63,562 nucleotides of DNA, filler included, from Circinaria calcarea (GCA_051942165.1; 16 parts of 16 records of this genome joined end to end with filler, not necessarily neighbours in it), one strand, 5' to 3'. Counted from the first letter of the whole stretch, positions 46,183 through 59,595 are shown. Numbers and translations: made by a program. Notes: a model not told the origin generated them from the letters alone.

Positions 46183-47199
46183 TCACCAATCAACCGCCCA
46201 TCCGTTCTCCTCGAGGAATTCGGTACAGGCTTGTTTGAGGGCAAGATTGGGTCTGAGCTCTTCAGCTTTGAGAGGCTCACGAGTCAGAGGATCCGTTTCT
46301 GATCGTCGGAGATGTTCGAGTATGGTAGATCTATCGTAAGACTGACCGTTTTTCGTCACAACCGGGTCGTGCATGATGGCAAAAGATATATTATCAATTA
46401 AATAGTCGGGTACTTCCTACACGAGATTGTTAGAGACCTCTGGAACTGTCAGCACGATTTAAATGTCGATAACCTTACCCGTCGTCGTAAATGCTCTGGA
46501 TCTGCTATAGCAAAGATACTCCGTATTTCTTCGACTTTTCGTCTAGTAGCTAACTCTATCTCCGCCTTCTCTTCCAGACCTTCCACTTGATCGATATCGT
46601 GTTTCTCAATCTGTTCCTCGAGCGCACGTACCTCCTTTCGACTATTGTTTAACAGGCTATCCTCTAGCTCCTGAAGCAACTCGCTTCTCCTTCTGATCCG
46701 TTCCCGCTCCCGCATCTCCCATTTCTCTTTCTTCGCCTGTAGGACAATGGTAGATATACTAGATGCGCTTGCGTTGTGGGTTTGTATCGCAAGATCGTAG
46801 GCGGTCAAGGCAGATGTCAGAGCTTCATTAGGATGATGTAAAGCGAGCTGGGCTTTGGCAAGATAGAAGTACGCTTTCATGTTATCGCGCTGAAGCTCGA
46901 TAGCTTTGATACAGTCATCGATGCAGCTGTCCCAGGACTGAAGCATGATACGGCTGAAAGCTCGATTGGTGAAAAGGATAGGATTGGTAGGGTCCTTTTG
47001 TATACTCCGTTCTGTCAGCCTCATGAACAGTGCATACTGGAGACGGACTCTTACGCTCTGGTATACAAAACCTCGGCTTCCTTAAAGTCGCCTGCCTGGA
47101 AGGCCCTTTGGGATCGTTAGAAGGACGTGGAGGGAGTTTCTTATGGGAAGCTCACTTGTTCCCTTGCTCCTTGAGTGTGATAGCTGCTGCACTTGCCAT
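46183..47199 (-). CDS. STUB1: CHIP/STUB1 TPR-U-box E3 ubiquitin ligase, multi-exon
   Basis: TPR region LKEQGN, FTNRA, KAYFYL; U-box EVPDYLID.ISF.IMHDPVVTKNGQSYDR..ILEHL...TDPLTREPL....LRPNLALK. Confidence 0.93.
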
Positions 47200-47790
47200 T
47201 GTGAATGGTGTATAGCGGCCTTGCCTTGTCAGATTCGGTCTCTTGGCAACATTACAGAGACAGTAGGTGTATCAATTGATTAGTGCATGCCCACATTTGT
47301 GAGGGAGCTTTTCTTTAATAAGATTTGTCCACCGCAAGTGGCCCGGAAGCTGAGGAATATGTAAGCAATGTTATGCAACTCATGTTACACCAACATTGAT
47401 GATAAGGTATGGTTAGATGTTAACATTATGCGACCAAAATCTTCTACGAAGATATTGCTGAATGAACTGAGGGGCTCGCTTTTGGTGGTTCGAAATTCAC
47501 CGGTTACCTTGCTAATGACTCGGCAAACCTTCCCAACTGTTCTAGCCAGAGCCTGATGCCTGGCCCGATTTGCTCGATTCTCCAGGCTACCAAAATGTAT
47601 GTAAAGGAAGGGCAGGTCAGCTTTGGGAGCCGCTTATCAAGTCAAAGTTACCATTCACCATTAATCCCCTCTAGTACCACCTCCAACTTNNNNNNNNNNN
47701 NNNNNNNNNNNNNNNNNNNNNNNNNNNNNNNNNTTAATTAATTAANNNNNNNNNNNNNNNNNNNNNNNNNNNNNNNNNNNNNNNNNNNNG

Positions 47791-50652
47791 TGGGTGGGGG
47801 AGAGGCCGTTGGGGTTTGGGGCCCAGTCAATGATTGGGCTATGGCGGAGAGATGATACGGACGGGCCCGATGTAGGTTCTTGAGAAGAAAGTCAACAGAA
47901 AAGGTGTTGAGGCGGGGCTGCCGCTGACGATCATGGAATAGTACTTGGCCATAAAGGAGACCTTTCAGCGCGTTTGGGAGCACAACCGCGAATGGCCCGA
48001 AGCCCGGATCTTACGCGAGCTGACCAATGTCGGGTGCAATAACATTATCCAGCTCAAAGCTTACCGACGATTTCCGAATCAAGACAAACATAGGTTGTAT
48101 CTTGAGTACGCGCCGCACGGTAGTCTGGCTGTGTTGATTAATAGATATCGACGCTGGAGGTAACTGTCCCACAATCAAGTTGATGGATTGAGACTGATAT
48201 GTTTGATAGACGTTACCTCCCCGAACCTTTCCTGTGGCACGTATTTCACCAACTGGCAATCGCGTTGGTAGTAATGCAAAAGGGGCAACTACCAGATAGG
48301 GCAAATCCGGTTAAAGCAAAACGGCCTGAAAACATCAATCGTGGGAAACCTCTACCTTCGCCTCCAAGTACGTCCGATGAAGAGGGAGAGGATGACGAGG
48401 GAGAAGGTGAGGAGGAAAGCGAAGATGAAGAGGAAAGGGATGACGGTGATGGAGAAGACGAGGATGAAAGCGAAGATGAAGAGGAAAGGGATGGCGGTGA
48501 TGGAGAAGATGAGGATAAAAGCGAAGATGAAGAGGAAAGCGATGACGATGATGGAGAAGATGAGGGTAAAAGCGAAGATGAAGAGGAAAGCGATGAGGAG
48601 GAAAGCGAAGATGAAGAGAAAAAGGCCACCGAAAAAGGGAAGGGAAAGGCAACCAAAAAAGGAAAGGGAAAGGCCATCGAGAAAGGAAAGGAAAAGGCCA
48701 CGGAAAAAGGGAAAAAAAGTGATGTCAAAACATATGATGGTAATAAATATGATGGTTGGATATATCGACGCATACAGAAGGAATGCTCAGATCGAGGGCT
48801 TCCCGCAAGGTTGACGCGGGATAAAATGGTCGGCTATCTGCTAGAGGATGATCGCCAGCAAAAAGTTGCGCAAGGACCTGGGCCTCCACGGCAAGAAACC
48901 GATGGTAATCCTAAAAATACGAAGAAAAGTAAAAGCAAAAACCTCAAGAAACACAAGGGTAAGGGCGTCGTCCATCCAGGAGGCAACGGCACCAATAAAG
49001 GTGCAGGCAGCGGCACCGGTAAAGCTCCAAGGGGAGGCAGTGGCACAGGCAAAGCCCCTGCTGGGGGCAATGGAACCGGTAAAGCTCCTGCTAAAGGCAA
49101 GCCCGAGAAAGCCCAACCGAAAGCAAAGAATGGTGTAACACTCGAGACCATCTCGAAGGAGCTGTTCAACACTATAGACGCGGCCGTGGAGCAACTAAAA
49201 AAGGTTGACGAGACGCAAGATACAGAAACCAGGCCGGGACGTGGGGCGAGATGGCGGGAAATCGGTAAGTCAATAACAAGTCCTTGGACCATGGGCCACC
49301 AGAACGGGCTGACAGACAGCCTGCAGTACACCGAGACCTTTGCCCTCATAACAGTTTGTTGACTCTATCCTCGATCGCAGTGGTAAGCCGTTGACTTTGA
49401 GACAGTTTTCCTCGGTGATCCCGTCAAAACGTCGAGCTGGCCGGAGTATCCAACCATGAAACTGGGCGATTTCGGTGACGCAATCCGGACCTATCCTGGA
49501 GATCCGTATAACAACGGATTACAGCACTGGGCAGCCGTCAGGGAACATTACGATGCACCGGTAAGAGATCTCTGAGAGGTTCGAGGCAGGCCCCACTAAC
49601 CAACATCATAGGAGCAAAGTGCAATTCCACCGATCGAAGCACTTGGGATGAATGCCCCGGCTGAAGCTAACCCAGACGAGTGCGAGTATATCCGCCCCGA
49701 AGAAACTCTTACGGACGACCGTTTCTTGCAAGCACCACTCTCCGCGTACAGCAATGTATTCTCGCTTGGTTCGACAATGCACCGGGCAACAACGTTGGCG
49801 AGTCTTTCTTCCTCGTTTCAAAGCGGATCCTTGAGGTCGCCATACCTGGCACGGGCACCCTATTCCCGACGCCTTCTGGAGCTCATCTCACGCTGCGTAA
49901 GAGAGGATCCACATGCCCGTCCGACACCTGAGCAGCTATACCGTATCACAGGGAGCTGTCTAGCCGCATGCAGGGATTACCAAGCAAAGCTAGGGGGGAA
50001 AAATCCGTTCCGTGTCTTCTACCGTGGTGTCGAGATCAACCAGATGGAGACGGGCTTCTGGCAGCCGGAGTATATCAATAACGGCATTCCCGTGTATGAA
50101 GATCTCCAGTTCCCAGTCAAGGTTGATGGGGTCGGTATAGACCCGCCGACGGTGGAAGAGTTCTATCCTTATCAAAGTAAAAATCGTGACTTCTTTACCC
50201 GAGCAGATAATACTTATAGAAACAGTGGTTCCTCAAAAGCTAAACTGAAACCCAAAAAGGATAAAATCGACTTGGTGCCTCATGCCTATAATCGCCAATT
50301 ATGGCCCATAGTATATGGTCCATCAGCAGTTTTCTCAAAGAGAGTATTCGAAGCGAATGTCGAAAAATACGGTCACGGAGAAAAGGAGGGAAACGACGAT
50401 GATGACGACGACGATGCTATCAATTCTGATGGCGATAAGAGCAACGATGACGATGAGCGCGATAGTGGCAATAAGAATAGTATGGATAATGGAAAGGGTG
50501 GCAGCGATGAGAAGAATAGCGGTAATGGCAAAAATGAGGACGGTCAAAATGGCGAGGACGGAGAGGAGGACAATGCGGAAGAGGGAAATGGTGGGAAGAA
50601 TGGTGGAGTGGGTATCTGGAACATATTTGGGTTTCTGGCGCCGTTTGACTGA
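47791..50652 (+). CDS. Divergent NEK/NIMA-like Ser/Thr kinase with a very large insert; multi-exon, 5' truncated
   Basis: PLGFGAQSMIGLW|YLAIKE, EARIL, RLYLEYAPHGSL, LPEPFLWHVFHQL, 27-nt exon 49327-49353 VHRDLCPHN, KLGDFG, YDAP|EQ, SNVFSLG, YSRRLLELISRC..EDP..RPT; all introns are GT-AG with branch points. Confidence 0.85.
48415..48618 (+). repeat. Coding tandem repeat, 51-bp (17-aa) unit, about 3 full copies plus partial copies
   Basis: GAAAGCGAAGATGAAGAGGAAAGGGATGACGGTGATGGAGAAGACGAGGAT and variants (ESEDEEERDDGDGEDED). Confidence 0.9.
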
Positions 50653-51758
50653 TCATCAGACACGATAGACAGCTATTTTCTCAGTTTTGTTAGCTTACTC
50701 TCGTAGCTACCCGTATACTAAATCGTCCCTTTTCCGTGACCATATAGCGACTTTCTGAGGCTCGCGTGAAGTGTTGATTCTGTTGTAAGGATCCACTGGG
50801 CTGGACCTTGGAAAGTGTTCTTTCCCGAGAACGTTCAACCGCGGTGTGCAGGAATTCTTGCCGATGGAACACAGTCAGGATATGAAATCCGTACTGAAGG
50901 GGTGCTTCGTGCTAAATATAAGCTACATAGATTAGGTGCCTGATCTGTAAGGATGAGTAGCTCCACACAAGAGGTCCTCGGGGATCATACTCGGCAGTTA
51001 CGCTTGAACAGCCACCTCGATTGTTGTAACTATGTCGGATCACATCCTCTAAGTTGCATGTGCAGGTAGTTAGGTGCCACAAAGCTTCAAATATATTGAT
51101 GCCCAGTTCGAAAGACTTGATACGTATGTAACGAGGATGACGGTAATCCTCGTCCTAACAATCTCGTCTCGGCCACGATGATTGGAGAGGATGGCTTTGA
51201 ATGAGTGTCGTGTTATTATGCTTAAATCATTTCAGCTCATTATCATGCAGTCTGTCCCGGAATATGAAGTCATATCATAGCGAGAATGTACGAGGAATGG
51301 AATGAAAAGAGAACTTGGTGGAATTATAATCATCCTACCGATTACTTAACTTTTCCTGACTACTTCCACAATAGAAAGAAAATCATGTGATCTAAAAGCC
51401 TCCGTTAGATATATACCGCTGCGTCTAATGTTATCACAGTTCCTTAAACTCCGTCACTTTTCTCTCAGGATCCATCAGTACATGGATCTCCCGTTTCTTT
51501 TTTGGAGAAGATATATCATCTTTGAAAAAGCCCTCCCTGAGACCGTCCAAGTACAACTCGTAAGCTGGCATATAGCCTTGCACTTAGATCCCAGAGGCCA
51601 GCAAACGGTTAGTCCAACTCACCGCATTGAGATGATCCTGAAATGCGCCGGTATCCTTNNNNNNNNNNNNNNNNNNNNNNNNNNNNNNNNNNNNNNNNNN
51701 NNTTAATTAATTAANNNNNNNNNNNNNNNNNNNNNNNNNNNNNNNNNNNNNNNNNNNN

Positions 51759-58442: not shown

Positions 58443-59595
58443 ATGGCAGCCTCTACAGAGTCAGAGAAGGAAAAGTATGATACGGTCGAGACGATTGGTA
58501 TATATTCATTGCCTTCAGAGAGTTATGATACGTGATAACTAATCATAACATAGGCAAAGGTTCTTTTGGAATCATCCATAAAGTCAAGAGGAAATCTGAT
58601 AATCAGGTATGGACTACCTTCCTGTCGTATAGGTTTCGAGATTGACCAATAGTAGATTTTCTGTCGAAAAGAGATCAACTACATAAAGATGTCGCAAAAG
58701 GAACGAGAACAGCTGCACGCTGAATTCTCTATCCTCAGCTCTTTACGCCATCCAAACATTGTGGCCTATCTACATCGGGAACATATAAAAACGTCACAAG
58801 AGCTTCACATTTACATGGAGTATTGCGGAGGTGGAGACTTGGGCAAGGTTATCAAGAATCTACAGGCCAAGAACCAATATGCAGAGGAGGAATATGTGTG
58901 GAGCATCTTCTCTCAACTCGTCACGGCCTTATACCGGTGTCACTATGGTGTTGACCCTCCAGAAGTTGGAAAGAACGTCATGGGCCCAACTAACAACACC
59001 AAACCCTCTGGATTACGAAGTAAGAGTCAGATCATGATTTTGCACCGAGACCTGAAACCCGAGAACGGTATGTACCAAGCTTCCCAATACAGTTCAGACA
59101 TCTACTGACAGTTGTAGTATTCCTTGGTGAGGACAACTCCGTCAAATTAGGAGATTTTGGGCTTTCAAAGTTGATGCAATCCCATGATTTTGCATCCACT
59201 TATGTCGGCACACCATTTTACATGTCTCCCGAGATATGTGCAGCCGAACGATATACTCTACACTCGGATATTTGGTCTCTAGGATGTATCATGTACGAGC
59301 TTTGTGCCAGACATCCTCCATTCAATGCCAAAACACACTTTCATCTGGTACAGAAGATTAAAGAAGGTAGAGTGGACCCGCTACCGAGGATGTACTCAGC
59401 CGAACTGCGAGACGTAATCATGAGCTGTCTCAAAACAAATCCATTGAATCGACCAGACACGGCGAGTCTCCTTCAACTACCAGTAGTAAGGTTAATGAGG
59501 AAGGAGAGAGAGGTTGTTGAGTTTGGGAAGGTATTGAAATTGAAGGAGGAGCAGGCTTCGGCCGCGGAACTCGAGATGAAAGCAAGGATAGCGAA
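58443..59595 (+). CDS. nimA: G2-specific protein kinase NimA, multi-exon, 3' truncated
   Basis: IG|KGSFGII.KV.RK.D, CRKEINY.KMSQKEREQLHAEF.ILSSLRHPNIV, LYRCHYGVDPP, ILHRDLKPEN, HDFASTYVGTPFYMSPEIC. Confidence 0.96.

Follow-up and report, generated by a model that had tools for sequence, protein, structure and literature searches.

A gene at the contig edge of the Circinaria calcarea window (the whole stretch of DNA analysed, 63,562 nt, made up of 16 contigs of ~3.9 kb each with N linkers between them) encodes a kinase whose helix E and catalytic loop are separated by a long translated insert. The reading we favour, with a probability of about one half, is that this is a real gene for a fast-evolving kinase, distantly related to NimA/NEK, whose enlarged coding insert would carry a SAP/HeH-type tether. 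The kinase motifs, the conservation of the insert core among relatives and comparisons with the SAP and NEK families are set out below, together with the alternatives to this reading.

Results

Gene model and kinase core

The gene sits on a single contig piece (Table 1), so position 47791 marks the edge of that contig rather than the start of the gene. Joining six exons across five introns of 50-70 nt, all bounded by GT..AG, gives a single open frame of 858 aa whose 5' part is missing where the contig stops; compared with the Lignoscripta relative P0040, the N-terminus is short by ~135 aa. Exon 1 was aligned with the glycine-rich loops of the relatives P0014, P0038 and P0040, and residues 138-162 of P0014 match 47791-47865 in tblastn. 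Exon 3, which holds the insert, reads through its full 1055 nt without a stop and joins both flanking exons in frame. The deposited model of the same gene (P0004, 100% identical) begins at 48274 with the M of VVMQKG, lacks the N-lobe and skips the HRD micro-exon; because that exon is present in all relatives, we regard P0004 as a mis-annotation. Searched with P0004, Pfam returns no family and the PDB returns low-complexity noise alone. Database gene models of the insert-bearing family are visibly unreliable, and automatic annotation hides its kinase identity because the deposited models miss both the 27-nt catalytic-loop exon and the N-lobe.

Table 1 Positions of the split-kinase gene, the parts of its insert and the NimA comparator, counted from the first letter of the window
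Feature	Position	Strand	Remarks
Contig holding the whole split-kinase gene	47790-51658	.	N-delimited piece
Exon 1, partial: glycine-rich loop, WVGERPLGFGAQSMIGLW...	47791..47871	+	junction with exon 2 tentative
Exon 2: β3 Lys (YLAIKE), αC Glu (EARILREL), hinge and αD (LEYAPHGSLAVLINRYRRW)	47942..48159	+	
Exon 3: helix E (48220-48285), then entire insert (48286-49263)	48210..49264	+	one open frame
Acidic block: 51-nt (17-aa) tandem repeat x4.9	48376..48622	+	Tandem Repeats Finder (TRF), 87% matches
Basic K/G block: 24-nt (8-aa) repeat KATEKGKG x3.8	48619..48717	+	TRF 48621-48710
SAP/HeH-like helix-loop-helix, NKYDGWIYRRIQKECSDRGLPARLTRDKMVGYLLEDD	48742..48852	+	conserved in 6/7 insert-bearing proteins
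Basic tract (..KNTKKSKSKNLKKHKGKG)	48853..48966	+	K/R 12/38 aa; spliced translation
G-rich block: 30-nt (10-aa) repeat GGNGTGKAP x2.8-2.9	48967..49134	+	TRF 49005-49100
Conserved helix (ETISKELFNTIDAAVEQLKK) and lead-in ...RWREI to catalytic loop	49135..49263	+	aligned in 7/7 proteins
Micro-exon, 27 nt: catalytic loop VHRDLCPHN	49327..49353	+	Cys replaces catalytic-loop Lys
Exon 5: IFLGDP...KLGDFGDA...YDAP(E)	49406..49560	+	phase-1 intron upstream
Exon 6: C-lobe remainder (subdomains IX-XI), C-terminal extension	49612..50652	+	ends with stop codon
Family-specific C-terminal motifs, FYRGVEINQMETGFWQPEY ... PPTVEEFYPYQSKNRDFF	50008-50196	+	in exon 6
Acidic/G/N tail	50380-50607	+	in exon 6
Hydrophobic end	50608-50649	+	in exon 6, before stop codon
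Comparator NimA, partial: CHYG-29 aa-ILHRDLKPEN, phase-1 intron, VFLGEDN...GTPFYMSPE	58656..59595	+	other contig

The spliced translation reads the glycine-rich loop PLGFGAQSMIGLW (GFGAQS), YLAIKE, EARILREL and helix E (PEPFLW...VVMQKG, ending at 48285), followed in the C-lobe by VHRDLCPHN, KLGDFGDA, YDAPE, SNVFSLG and DPHARPTPEQL. The original prediction that all kinase subdomains are present therefore stands for the motifs but has to be amended for one catalytic residue: β3 Lys, αC Glu, HRD Asp, Asn, DFG and APE are all in place, but the catalytic-loop Lys is Cys (HRDLCPHN). The same position is Cys or Ser in five relatives and Lys in P0040 only (n = 7 proteins), and the β3 Lys is replaced by Arg in P0014 and P0038. 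The Circinaria protein further contains a second extra loop of ~30 aa between APE and subdomain IX. Searches with single exons against Pfam Pkinase (PF00069, cut-off 31.7 bits) gave 15.3 bits for exon 2 (E 0.013, profile positions 29-91) and 10.8 bits for another exon, and the relatives P0040, P0012 and P0014 score 45.3, 43.9 and 36.5 bits. Judged from its sequence, the Circinaria gene product is a protein kinase; its predicted catalysis is uncertain, and it could work as a kinase of weak or atypical activity or serve as a scaffold in the manner of a pseudokinase.

Composition and conservation of the insert

The Circinaria protein has 325 aa separating the G of MQKG from IVHRD, in agreement with the predicted distance between helix E and the catalytic loop. 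The acidic, KATEKGKG and GGNGTGKAP repeats that had been described were recovered with units of 51, 24 and 30 nt, each a multiple of three and hence in frame. Asp or Glu makes up 60 of the 81 residues of the acidic block, which has no counterpart in the six full-length relatives and no family match. Unrelated G-rich runs lie at the place corresponding to the G-rich block in P0012 and P0037 (GGSGA runs in P0037). The acidic, K/G and G-rich arrays enlarged the insert in Circinaria and are peculiar to it, being absent as a family feature. The basic tract that follows the helix-loop-helix may represent a nuclear localisation signal.

The homologue search proposed for related fungi found six full-length relatives, in Xylographa and Lignoscripta, with a single-gene layout and an insert of 92-226 aa at the identical site. 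Across the seven proteins, which come from three orders, the insert measures 325, 116, 92, 92, 110, 166 and 226 aa, and in all seven it ends in W-x-E-I-VHRD, which is contiguous in the relatives' proteins. The conserved core consists of a ~35-aa helix-loop-helix and a second helix leading into W-x-E-I-V-H-R-D (in the low-confidence P0014 model, residues 341-355), and the remainder varies. KYDGW...LLEDD, located where the original prediction had placed its SAP-like segment (48745-48852), constitutes the conserved centre of the insert, and the motif recurs in six of the seven proteins, the P0037 gene model being without its second half. Since core identity between lineages is just 39-49%, the motif has survived much divergence.

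An HMMER scan of 1,835,955,588 representatives returned 29 matches, and every match with a named organism is a lichen-forming fungus, which bears out the lineage specificity proposed earlier; in that scan the family-specific C-terminal extension YYRGxEINxMxTGF...FYPY..DFF occurs in only 29 proteins among 1.84 billion representatives. As far as these sequences go, all members of the insert-bearing family seen so far belong to the Ostropomycetidae, a subclass of Lecanoromycetes, and form lichens (Circinaria, Lignoscripta and Xylographa). Five distinct and more distant loci from metagenomes (L001-L003, L007 and L008) are free of the insert: helix E reads YLPEPFLW, 9-16 aa precede HxD, and no intron lies between the two. 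These loci have in common with the insert-bearing family the N-lobe, helix E, the intron after HxDxKPxN and DFG, and in L007 and L008 also the C-terminal YYR.NEIN.M motif, but they lack the SAP-like motif, keep the catalytic-loop Lys and vary at the HRD Arg (HKD, HMD, HLD, HCD). By comparison with these five loci, the insert is read as the derived state. The insert-bearing family evolves fast, with paralogues in tandem, repeats that expand and catalytic residues that drift, which makes it a candidate lineage-specific regulator.

Probable kinship with NimA and NEK kinases

The gene had been described as NEK-like, and the comparisons support NEK kinases as its nearest kin only. Among solved structures, P0040 finds Nek7 first (E 7.3e-6), with Nek7 or a Nek7 fusion in nine of its ten best rows, and P0032 finds only NEK1 (2e-6) and NEK2 (6.5e-5) at E <= 1e-4, so that the nearest NEK matches fall at E 2e-6 to 7e-6. 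The family profile places TTK (3.4e-6) level with Nek7 (3.3e-6) and NEK2 (3.6e-6), P0014 alone finds ULK1/2 first, and the Circinaria N-lobe exon yields a weak JAK2 match (E 0.3).

Gene structure and loop position add to the likeness. The NimA gene of the same window has 29 aa between CHYG and ILHRDLKPEN, the short insert that had been noted at the corresponding site, and it matches P0014 (BLASTP E 1e-7) across LQYGRIDPPE / CHYG-VDPPE. NimA and the Circinaria split kinase both have a phase-1 intron one base past the Asn codon of HRDxxPxN. Features held in common with NimA thus include the extra loop at the junction of helix E and the catalytic loop, its YG-x-DPPE start (in NimA and P0014) and the phase-1 intron; the αD-αE stretch is similar, and NIFL follows HRDxxPxN. 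The differences are nonetheless substantial. The loop is 325 aa in Circinaria against 29 in NimA, the catalytic-loop Lys is Cys, and all of the sequence similarity is weak (E ~1e-6, with TTK tied). In addition, the activation segment DFG...(S/T)xVGTPxYMSPE, which we take to be the NEK signature, is present in the NimA of the same window, whereas the split kinase reads DFGDAIRTYPGDPYNNGLQHWAAVREHYDAPE, without GTPxYMSPE.

The SAP-like helix-loop-helix

Over ~35 aa the motif follows the pattern Y-D-x-[MW]...C-[KS]-x-R-[GS]-[ILV]...[TR]-[KR]-D..[ML]..L-L. In a single-sequence AF2 model of a 74-aa piece, helices at residues 22-36 and 45-62 flank an eight-residue loop (37-44, SDRGLPAR) at pLDDT 69-81, so that the modelled Circinaria motif shows the two helices and extended loop within ~35 aa that mark a SAP domain; the two-helix pattern recurs in the low-confidence P0014 model. 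The order of helix, extended R-G-L loop and helix is that of the SAP/HeH proteins Tho1, SAF-A/Hcc-1, SF3B2, MKL1, PIAS and Ku70, and the Circinaria spacing of R-G-L ... [TR]-[KR]-D-x-[ML] equals what we take to be the SAP consensus spacing. The motif differs from these proteins by a Cys at the position of a SAP core Leu and by an inter-helix loop whose length varies by 2-3 residues or more between family members.

Of the 29 Foldseek matches listed for the motif model, those at ranks 1-4, 6 and 13 are SAP domains (in rank order Tho1, Hcc-1, SF3B2, E1B-AP5, Tho1 and MKL1); the best, 4uzw, has a probability of 0.85 and an rmsd of 1.4 Å over 34 columns, at E-values that are all at least 0.96 (0.96-2.7 for ranks 1-4; 0 of 39 at E <= 0.001). 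An independent VIA-align search of 48,161 chains is led by bHLH and other two-helix proteins (Z <= 4.7), with the first SAP domain at rank 33 (Z 3.6), and a second look at SAP structures gave Z 3.7 for Tho1 and 3.6 for Hcc-1. The nearest named Atlas clusters, found as language-model neighbours, are SAP (0.85), Rho_N/SAP (0.84) and SAP (0.83); SAP, Rho_N and HeH neighbours overall score 0.78-0.85, under the tool's trust level of 0.9.

At the level of sequence profiles, the Pfam SAP family (PF02037) has no match to the Circinaria motif at E <= 10. It is the sole small-motif family that matches the P0040 segment (19.9 bits, E 5.6e-4, profile positions 8-25 of 37), below the cut-off of 23.9 bits. 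Segments from Circinaria, P0014 and P0012 did not match SAP at all and showed only weak likeness to LETM1_RBD and to a phage baseplate domain; phmmer with the motif found nothing in the PDB, and the motif profiles A4 and A7 found 10 and 4 PDB matches at E <= 10 with no SAP protein among them. The SAP-like character assigned at the outset is suggested by the leading structural matches and, below the cut-off, by one relative's segment but lacks a Pfam match on the Circinaria motif itself, and we regard a SAP identity as plausible though unproven.

Predicted pairing of the two kinase halves

Whether the fold closes around the insert, a check suggested with the original prediction, was addressed on P0040. 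The halves flanking its insert (residues 130-270 and 376-600) were predicted as a pair with a score of 0.87, whereas the highest-scoring of three controls had 0.21. Of 78 solved complexes 51 attain this mark, as do 2 of 108 mismatched pairs. Separate runs share at least 63% of contacts, partner pLDDT is at least 65, and helix E packs in the model against the region of HRD, αF and αH. This outcome favours closure and probably reflects likeness to solved kinases; it comes from a relative and did not draw on our alignment. AF2 of full-length P0014 from a 38-sequence alignment is poor (mean pLDDT 48, pTM 0.28) and does not show the placement of the insert.

Alternative readings of the insert

The most serious alternative, to which we assign a distinctly lower but real chance, accepts the kinase and the translated insert and denies the nucleic-acid-binding module: the site would be a permissive surface loop prone to drift and to gaining repeats, the two helices would serve structural or protein-protein roles (C-lobe packing, dimerisation or autoregulation), and the SAP likeness would be generic. 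Generic two-helix proteins do outrank SAP in the VIA-align search, the Circinaria motif is without a Pfam SAP match, and neither motif profile retrieves a SAP chain. The insert also varies freely in length and composition (92-325 aa; GGSGA in P0037, acidic in Circinaria), and NimA already has a loop at the corresponding site. Set against this are the four leading Foldseek matches, all of them SAP domains, the SAP match on the P0040 segment to the exclusion of other small-motif families, the SAP, Rho_N and HeH identity of the Atlas neighbours and the R-G-L spacing, which point to a SAP-type motif.

Two further alternatives concern the gene itself. Removal of most or all of the 1-kb insert as a long or alternative intron would leave a compact kinase, or the copy could be in decay or owe its repeats to faulty assembly. 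Exon 3 contains 18 frame-compatible GT sites, some with good donors (CAA|GTACGT at 48368 and GTAAGG at 48959), by which an insert-skipping isoform may conceivably arise; GA-rich repeats can keep several frames open by chance, and the unreliable gene models of the family leave room for error. The conservation of the motif and terminal helix as protein across three orders, despite the low core identity, argues for translation, as do the open frame in phase with both flanks, the in-frame repeat units and the 50-70 nt length of the remaining introns, and we consider loss of the insert by splicing or decay improbable. That the halves belong to two genes, the first reduced to a fragment with the N-lobe and the other beginning inside the insert, is scarcely credible. 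The start of P0004 without the N-lobe would suit it, but that model is mis-annotated, no stop codon interrupts the passage from helix E into the insert, full-length single-gene models with the identical order of parts exist in Xylographa and Lignoscripta, and the P0040 halves are predicted as one fold. The view, present from the outset, of one gene with a coding insert inside the kinase is upheld by the six full-length relatives: on sequence grounds, the insert is coding and lies inside the kinase fold of a single gene.

Discussion

The favoured reading, a NimA/NEK-related kinase with a SAP/HeH-type tether, can be put as a sequence of steps. The stretch that joins helix E to the catalytic loop, which measures 29 aa in NimA, would have expanded in this family to a translated insert of 92-325 aa. 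The two kinase halves would nevertheless form a single fold, from which the insert would loop out at the back of the C-lobe. The helix-loop-helix, acting as a SAP/HeH-type motif, would tether the kinase to a nuclear scaffold or to nucleic acid; this contact might be tuned by the disordered acidic and basic blocks next to the motif, and the basic tract might act as a nuclear signal. The chromatin-binding or histone-chaperone-like role proposed at the outset would be speculative, the acidic block being a repeat confined to Circinaria. A more far-reaching version holds that the SAP/HeH motif and a new intron were inserted once into a NimA-derived kinase core in an ancestor of the Ostropomycetidae and kept since, giving a kinase or pseudokinase tethered to chromatin or RNA, in which the Circinaria acidic and basic repeats form a built-in DNA mimic or switch; we hold this version to be doubtful.

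If the two-helix element is truly a SAP-type DNA or RNA binder, the family would represent a new route for aiming a kinase at chromatin and a clean natural case of a domain inserted into a permissive loop, one already extended in NimA. SAP motifs usually stand at protein termini or between domains rather than within a catalytic fold. To our knowledge, a folded, conserved motif within the catalytic core is rare among protein kinases, and the cell biology of lichen-forming fungi is almost unstudied. In titles and the opening parts of abstracts, we found no kinase insert with a SAP domain in fungi, no NIMA-related kinase with a SAP domain, and nothing relevant on the kinome of Lecanoromycetes or the genome of Circinaria calcarea.

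Long inserts are familiar from other kinases, among them the SRPK spacer, the kinase-insert of PDGFR/VEGFR, the inserts of Cdc7 and the low-complexity inserts of Plasmodium kinases. The split kinase resembles these systems in carrying a long, mostly disordered and fast-evolving segment within an intact fold. It differs from them in the site of the insert, at the junction of helix E and the catalytic loop, and in a conserved folded core of a putative nucleic-acid-binding type.

The kinase with its insert is encoded by one gene

The target locus is one gene. The model, built from the sequence and its stop-to-stop frames, has six exons and five introns, each GT..AG and 50-70 nt long, and gives a single 858-aa open frame. 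This frame leaves the 5′ contig edge, and about 135 N-terminal residues are absent compared with the closest full-length relative. The last exon is identical to the deposited Circinaria protein P0004 (728 aa), which begins at the Met of VVMQKG and omits the 27-nt HRD micro-exon; the N-lobe and the HRD loop are therefore hidden in the deposited model, which accounts for the zero families matched in a Pfam scan of P0004. The micro-exon is confirmed, against the deposited model, by the unbroken W[RKNH]EIVHRD stretch in the proteins of related fungi (see below). In the deposited Circinaria models, which start inside the gene, WREI is joined straight to VFLGDP. A second Circinaria paralogue, P0007, opens with MDYLARLL, resembling the second helix of the helix-loop-helix motif described below.

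Sixteen separate contigs of 3867-3897 nt, sorted from longest to shortest, make up the window (1-63562), with N runs and a TTAATTAATTAA linker at each join. As the contigs are separate, neighbourhood across the joins is meaningless; an open frame on the preceding contig is unrelated to the kinase gene.

Coordinates of features in the window and in metagenome loci of insert-free relatives
Feature	Position	Strand	Details
Exon 1	47791-47871	+	
Exon 2	47942-48159	+	
Exon 3	48210-49264	+	
Exon 4	49327-49353	+	micro-exon, VHRDLCPHN
Exon 5	49406-49560	+	
Exon 6	49612-50652	+	stop at 50650-50652
Deposited model P0004	48274-50652		
Helix E	end at 48285		PEPFLWHVFHQLAIALVVMQKG
Acidic repeat array	48376-48622		51 nt x4.9, 87% matches
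K/G repeat array	48621-48710		24 nt x3.8
SAP-like segment	48745-48852		
Basic tract	48853-48966		
GNGTGKAP repeat array	49005-49100		30 nt x2.8-2.9
Intron bounding the insert	49265-49326		
Phase-1 intron	49354-49405		one base past catalytic-loop Asn codon
Second extra loop	49615-49740		~30 aa, SAIPPIEALGMNAPAEANPDECEYIRPEETLTDDRFLQAPL
C-terminal extension	50008-50196		F/YYRGxEINxMxTGF ... QFP ... PPxxxxFYPYxxxxxDFF
Tail	50380-50649		acidic/G/N-rich, hydrophobic tip GIWNIFGFLAPFD
Open frame, preceding contig	46449-47081	-	210 aa
NimA comparator ORFs	58656-59595		...ALYRCHYG-VDPPEVGKNVMGPTNNTKPSGLRSKSQIM-ILHRDLKPEN, intron, VFLGEDNSVKLGDFGLSKL...GTPFYMSPE
Insert-free locus L001	L001:4400-4620		9-aa link, VVHLD
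Insert-free locus L002	L002:580-740		16-aa link, IVHMD
Insert-free locus L003	L003:4450-4590		9-aa link, VVHKD
Insert-free locus L007			13-aa link, IVHRD
Insert-free locus L008	L008:4000-4160		16-aa link, IVHCD

A divergent kinase nearest to NimA and the NEKs

As the original prediction held, all kinase subdomains are present after splicing: the translation reads from the glycine-rich loop (PLGFGAQSMIGLW) through β3 (YLAIKE), αC (EARILREL), helix E and the catalytic loop to the C-lobe motifs KLGDFGDA, YDAPE, SNVFSLG and DPHARPTPEQL. The β3 Lys, αC Glu, HRD Asp, Asn, DFG and APE are retained, and one correction to that account is that the catalytic-loop Lys is Cys. Among the relatives, Xylographa has C or S at this position, with Arg in place of the β3 Lys in P0014 and P0038, and Lignoscripta keeps the canonical HRDIKPENIFL. 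Against the Pfam Pkinase cut-off of 31.7 bits, the relatives P0040, P0012 and P0014 score 45.3, 43.9 and 36.5 bits, and the exons of the window, scanned singly, only 15.3 and 10.8 bits.

The kinase had been called NEK-like, and NEKs are indeed among the best matches to solved structures: for P0040, Nek7 is the top match (E 7.3e-6) and Nek7 or a Nek7 fusion fills 9 of the 10 best rows, and the more canonical relative P0032 finds only NEK1 (2e-6) and NEK2 (6.5e-5) at E ≤ 1e-4. A five-sequence family profile finds Nek7 (3.3e-6), TTK (3.4e-6) and NEK2 (3.6e-6), P0014 alone prefers ULK1/2 (E 0.002-0.009), and the N-lobe exon of the window alone finds only JAK2 (E 0.3). In a language-model atlas, P0040 lies near unnamed Ascomycota kinase clusters (0.97). 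The NimA comparator on another contig, partial and truncated by the contig end, does carry a short insert at the same position, a 29-aa loop from CHYG to ILHRDLKPEN. It matches P0014 over the αD-αE stretch into the loop start (BLASTP E 1e-7), where its CHYG-VDPPE resembles LQYGRIDPPE of P0014, and it shares the phase-1 intron with the target gene; the target probably descends from a NimA-like gene. However, the defining NEK activation segment GTPxYMSPE, present in this NimA, is absent from the target. Because of this absence, and because NEK and TTK score alike, we do not assign the target to NEK proper; "NEK-like" is the best available label.

Outside these motifs, a second extra loop between APE and subdomain IX is longer than in Xylographa or Lignoscripta, and the hydrophobic tip of the tail recurs in the family proteins P0001 (SIWNIFGVWLE) and P0003 (GIWDMLGISLF).

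The insert is shared by relatives in lichen fungi

The stretch between the G of MQKG and IVHRD measures 325 residues, matching the predicted gap of about 325. All three repeat arrays of the original prediction are found by Tandem Repeats Finder, with periods divisible by three and D/E at 60 of 81 residues of the acidic block, and the SAP-like segment lies where it had been placed.

A homologue search, also proposed in the original prediction, recovered relatives with an insert at the same site. Using the non-repetitive part of exon 6 as HMMER query, we obtained only 29 proteins at E ≤ 0.001 among 1,835,955,588 representatives; a word-index search with the family alignment added three members and a cluster look-up one more. 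The query part that recovered the 29 is the C-terminal extension, which defines the family and has no Pfam match. Six relatives are complete or almost complete: P0012 and P0014 (Xylographa trunciseda, adjacent genes MMC11_001764/5), P0037 (X. opegraphella), P0038 (X. soralifera), P0039 (X. bjoerkii) and P0040 (Lignoscripta atroalba). These species of Baeomycetales and Trapeliales share a subclass with Circinaria calcarea (lichen-forming; Lecanoromycetes, Ostropomycetidae, Pertusariales). Family members in several species seem to be arranged as neighbouring paralogue pairs: by locus-tag numbers P0012/P0014 and P0010/P0037 (X. opegraphella MMC26_006182/4), and apparently P0001/P0013, both from a 6558-nt contig.

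All six carry the insert between helix E and W-x-E-I-VHRD, with sizes of 166, 92, 226, 92, 110 and 116 aa in the order listed. Identity between lineages outside the insert is only 39-49%, and two elements align inside it: a ~35-aa motif (Circinaria NKYDGWIYRRIQKECSDRGLPARLTRDKMVGYLLEDD; Lignoscripta VDYDAMAFSDLQKECKRRSLPAAG...; Xylographa RYDSMSQKQMFEACKTRGIRIQAKATKDNMKRLLQAY, and WDITEIRRRCKQLGV...KDNYLNKLRDEY) and a helix directly ahead of W-x-E-I. Six of the seven insert-bearing proteins have the motif; its second half is missing from the P0037 model, perhaps through a genuine deletion, perhaps because the annotation called an intron there. On the evidence of the relatives, the insert at the NimA loop site is translated, characteristic of the family and built around a conserved core, a helix-loop-helix plus a helix. 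Exon 3 contains 18 GT sites compatible with the frame, some with good donor sequence, and an insert-skipping isoform may also be made. None of the six has an equivalent of the acidic, K/G and GNGTGKAP blocks; P0012 and P0037 have G/S/T/A-rich runs instead, among them an extended GGSGA array in P0037, and the bulk of the Circinaria insert stems from in-frame repeat growth specific to this lineage.

The family alignment, used to scan metagenome contigs, picked up eight loci; three of them (L003, L004 and L005) are almost the same, and L006 is a fragment. In translation, L001, L002, L003, L007 and L008 have the same YLPEPFLW helix E, connected to the catalytic loop by a few residues, and all keep the catalytic-loop Lys. 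In four loci the HRD Arg varies (HLD, HMD, HKD and HCD) although this Lys is kept, and the insert-bearing group mostly shows the reverse pattern. Helix E and HxDxKPxN lie in a single uninterrupted frame in these loci, so they lack the intron that marks the 3′ boundary of the Circinaria insert. The 18 additional residues between WKEI and VHRD in P0039 probably come from this intron, which the annotation would have failed to remove; the intron following HxDxxPxN is common to all. Judged from these loci, the insert is derived.

Fold closure and the SAP-like motif

Whether the kinase fold closes around the insert is answered in part. The AF2 model of full-length P0014 (38 aligned sequences) is too poor to decide, with mean pLDDT 48 and pTM 0.28. 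When the P0040 halves flanking the insert (130-270 and 376-600) were given to a complex predictor with the family alignment left out, they scored 0.87 in three of three runs versus 0.21 for the best of three controls, with at least 63% contact agreement and partner pLDDT of at least 65; 51 of 78 solved complexes attain this mark, as do 2 of 108 mismatched pairs. Helix E (244-268) in the model touches the HRD, αF and αH regions, as in a normal kinase core. The high score is most likely owed to resemblance to solved kinases; it shows the two halves to be compatible with one fold and nothing beyond, for P0040 as relative of the target.

The segment had been described as SAP-like, and structural comparison partly favours this. 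AF2 predicts for the 74-aa window piece alone a helix (22-36), a loop (37-44, SDRGLPAR) and a helix (45-62), with pLDDT 69-81 in the motif. Foldseek against 350,542 PDB chains places SAP domains of Tho1, Hcc-1, SF3B2 and E1B-AP5 at ranks 1-4 (Tho1 4uzw: probability 0.85, rmsd 1.4 Å, 34 columns), with Tho1 again and MKL1 at ranks 6 and 13 among the 29 matches listed; none of 39 matches has E ≤ 0.001. Among named clusters of the atlas, SAP (0.85), Rho_N/SAP (0.84) and SAP (0.83) come closest, with HeH further down (0.78), all short of the trust level of 0.9 set for the tool. Pfam SAP hits the homologous Lignoscripta segment below threshold (E 5.6e-4, 19.9 bits versus a cut-off of 23.9), spanning only the first helix and loop, and leaves the window's own motif unmatched; phmmer and two motif profiles against the PDB return no SAP protein. 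VIA-align, independent of Foldseek, ranks bHLH and other two-helix proteins top (Z ≤ 4.7), with the Hcc-1 SAP at rank 33 (Z 3.6) and, in a second look, Tho1 at Z 3.7. We give roughly even odds to its being a true SAP/HeH-type motif.

Proposed role and comparison with known kinases

We propose that the core folds as a kinase and that the insert projects from the back of the C-lobe, where the helix-loop-helix could anchor the protein on nucleic acid or on a scaffold in the nucleus. Import into the nucleus might be helped by the basic tract, and the acidic and basic disordered blocks might tune the contact with nucleic acid or scaffold. Interest is moderate and would grow if DNA binding were shown. 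A title-level literature search found no SAP-domain kinase insert in fungi or with a NIMA-related kinase, and no Lecanoromycetes kinome. Kinases split by long inserts are known; what appears new here is the insertion site and the conserved SAP-like core.
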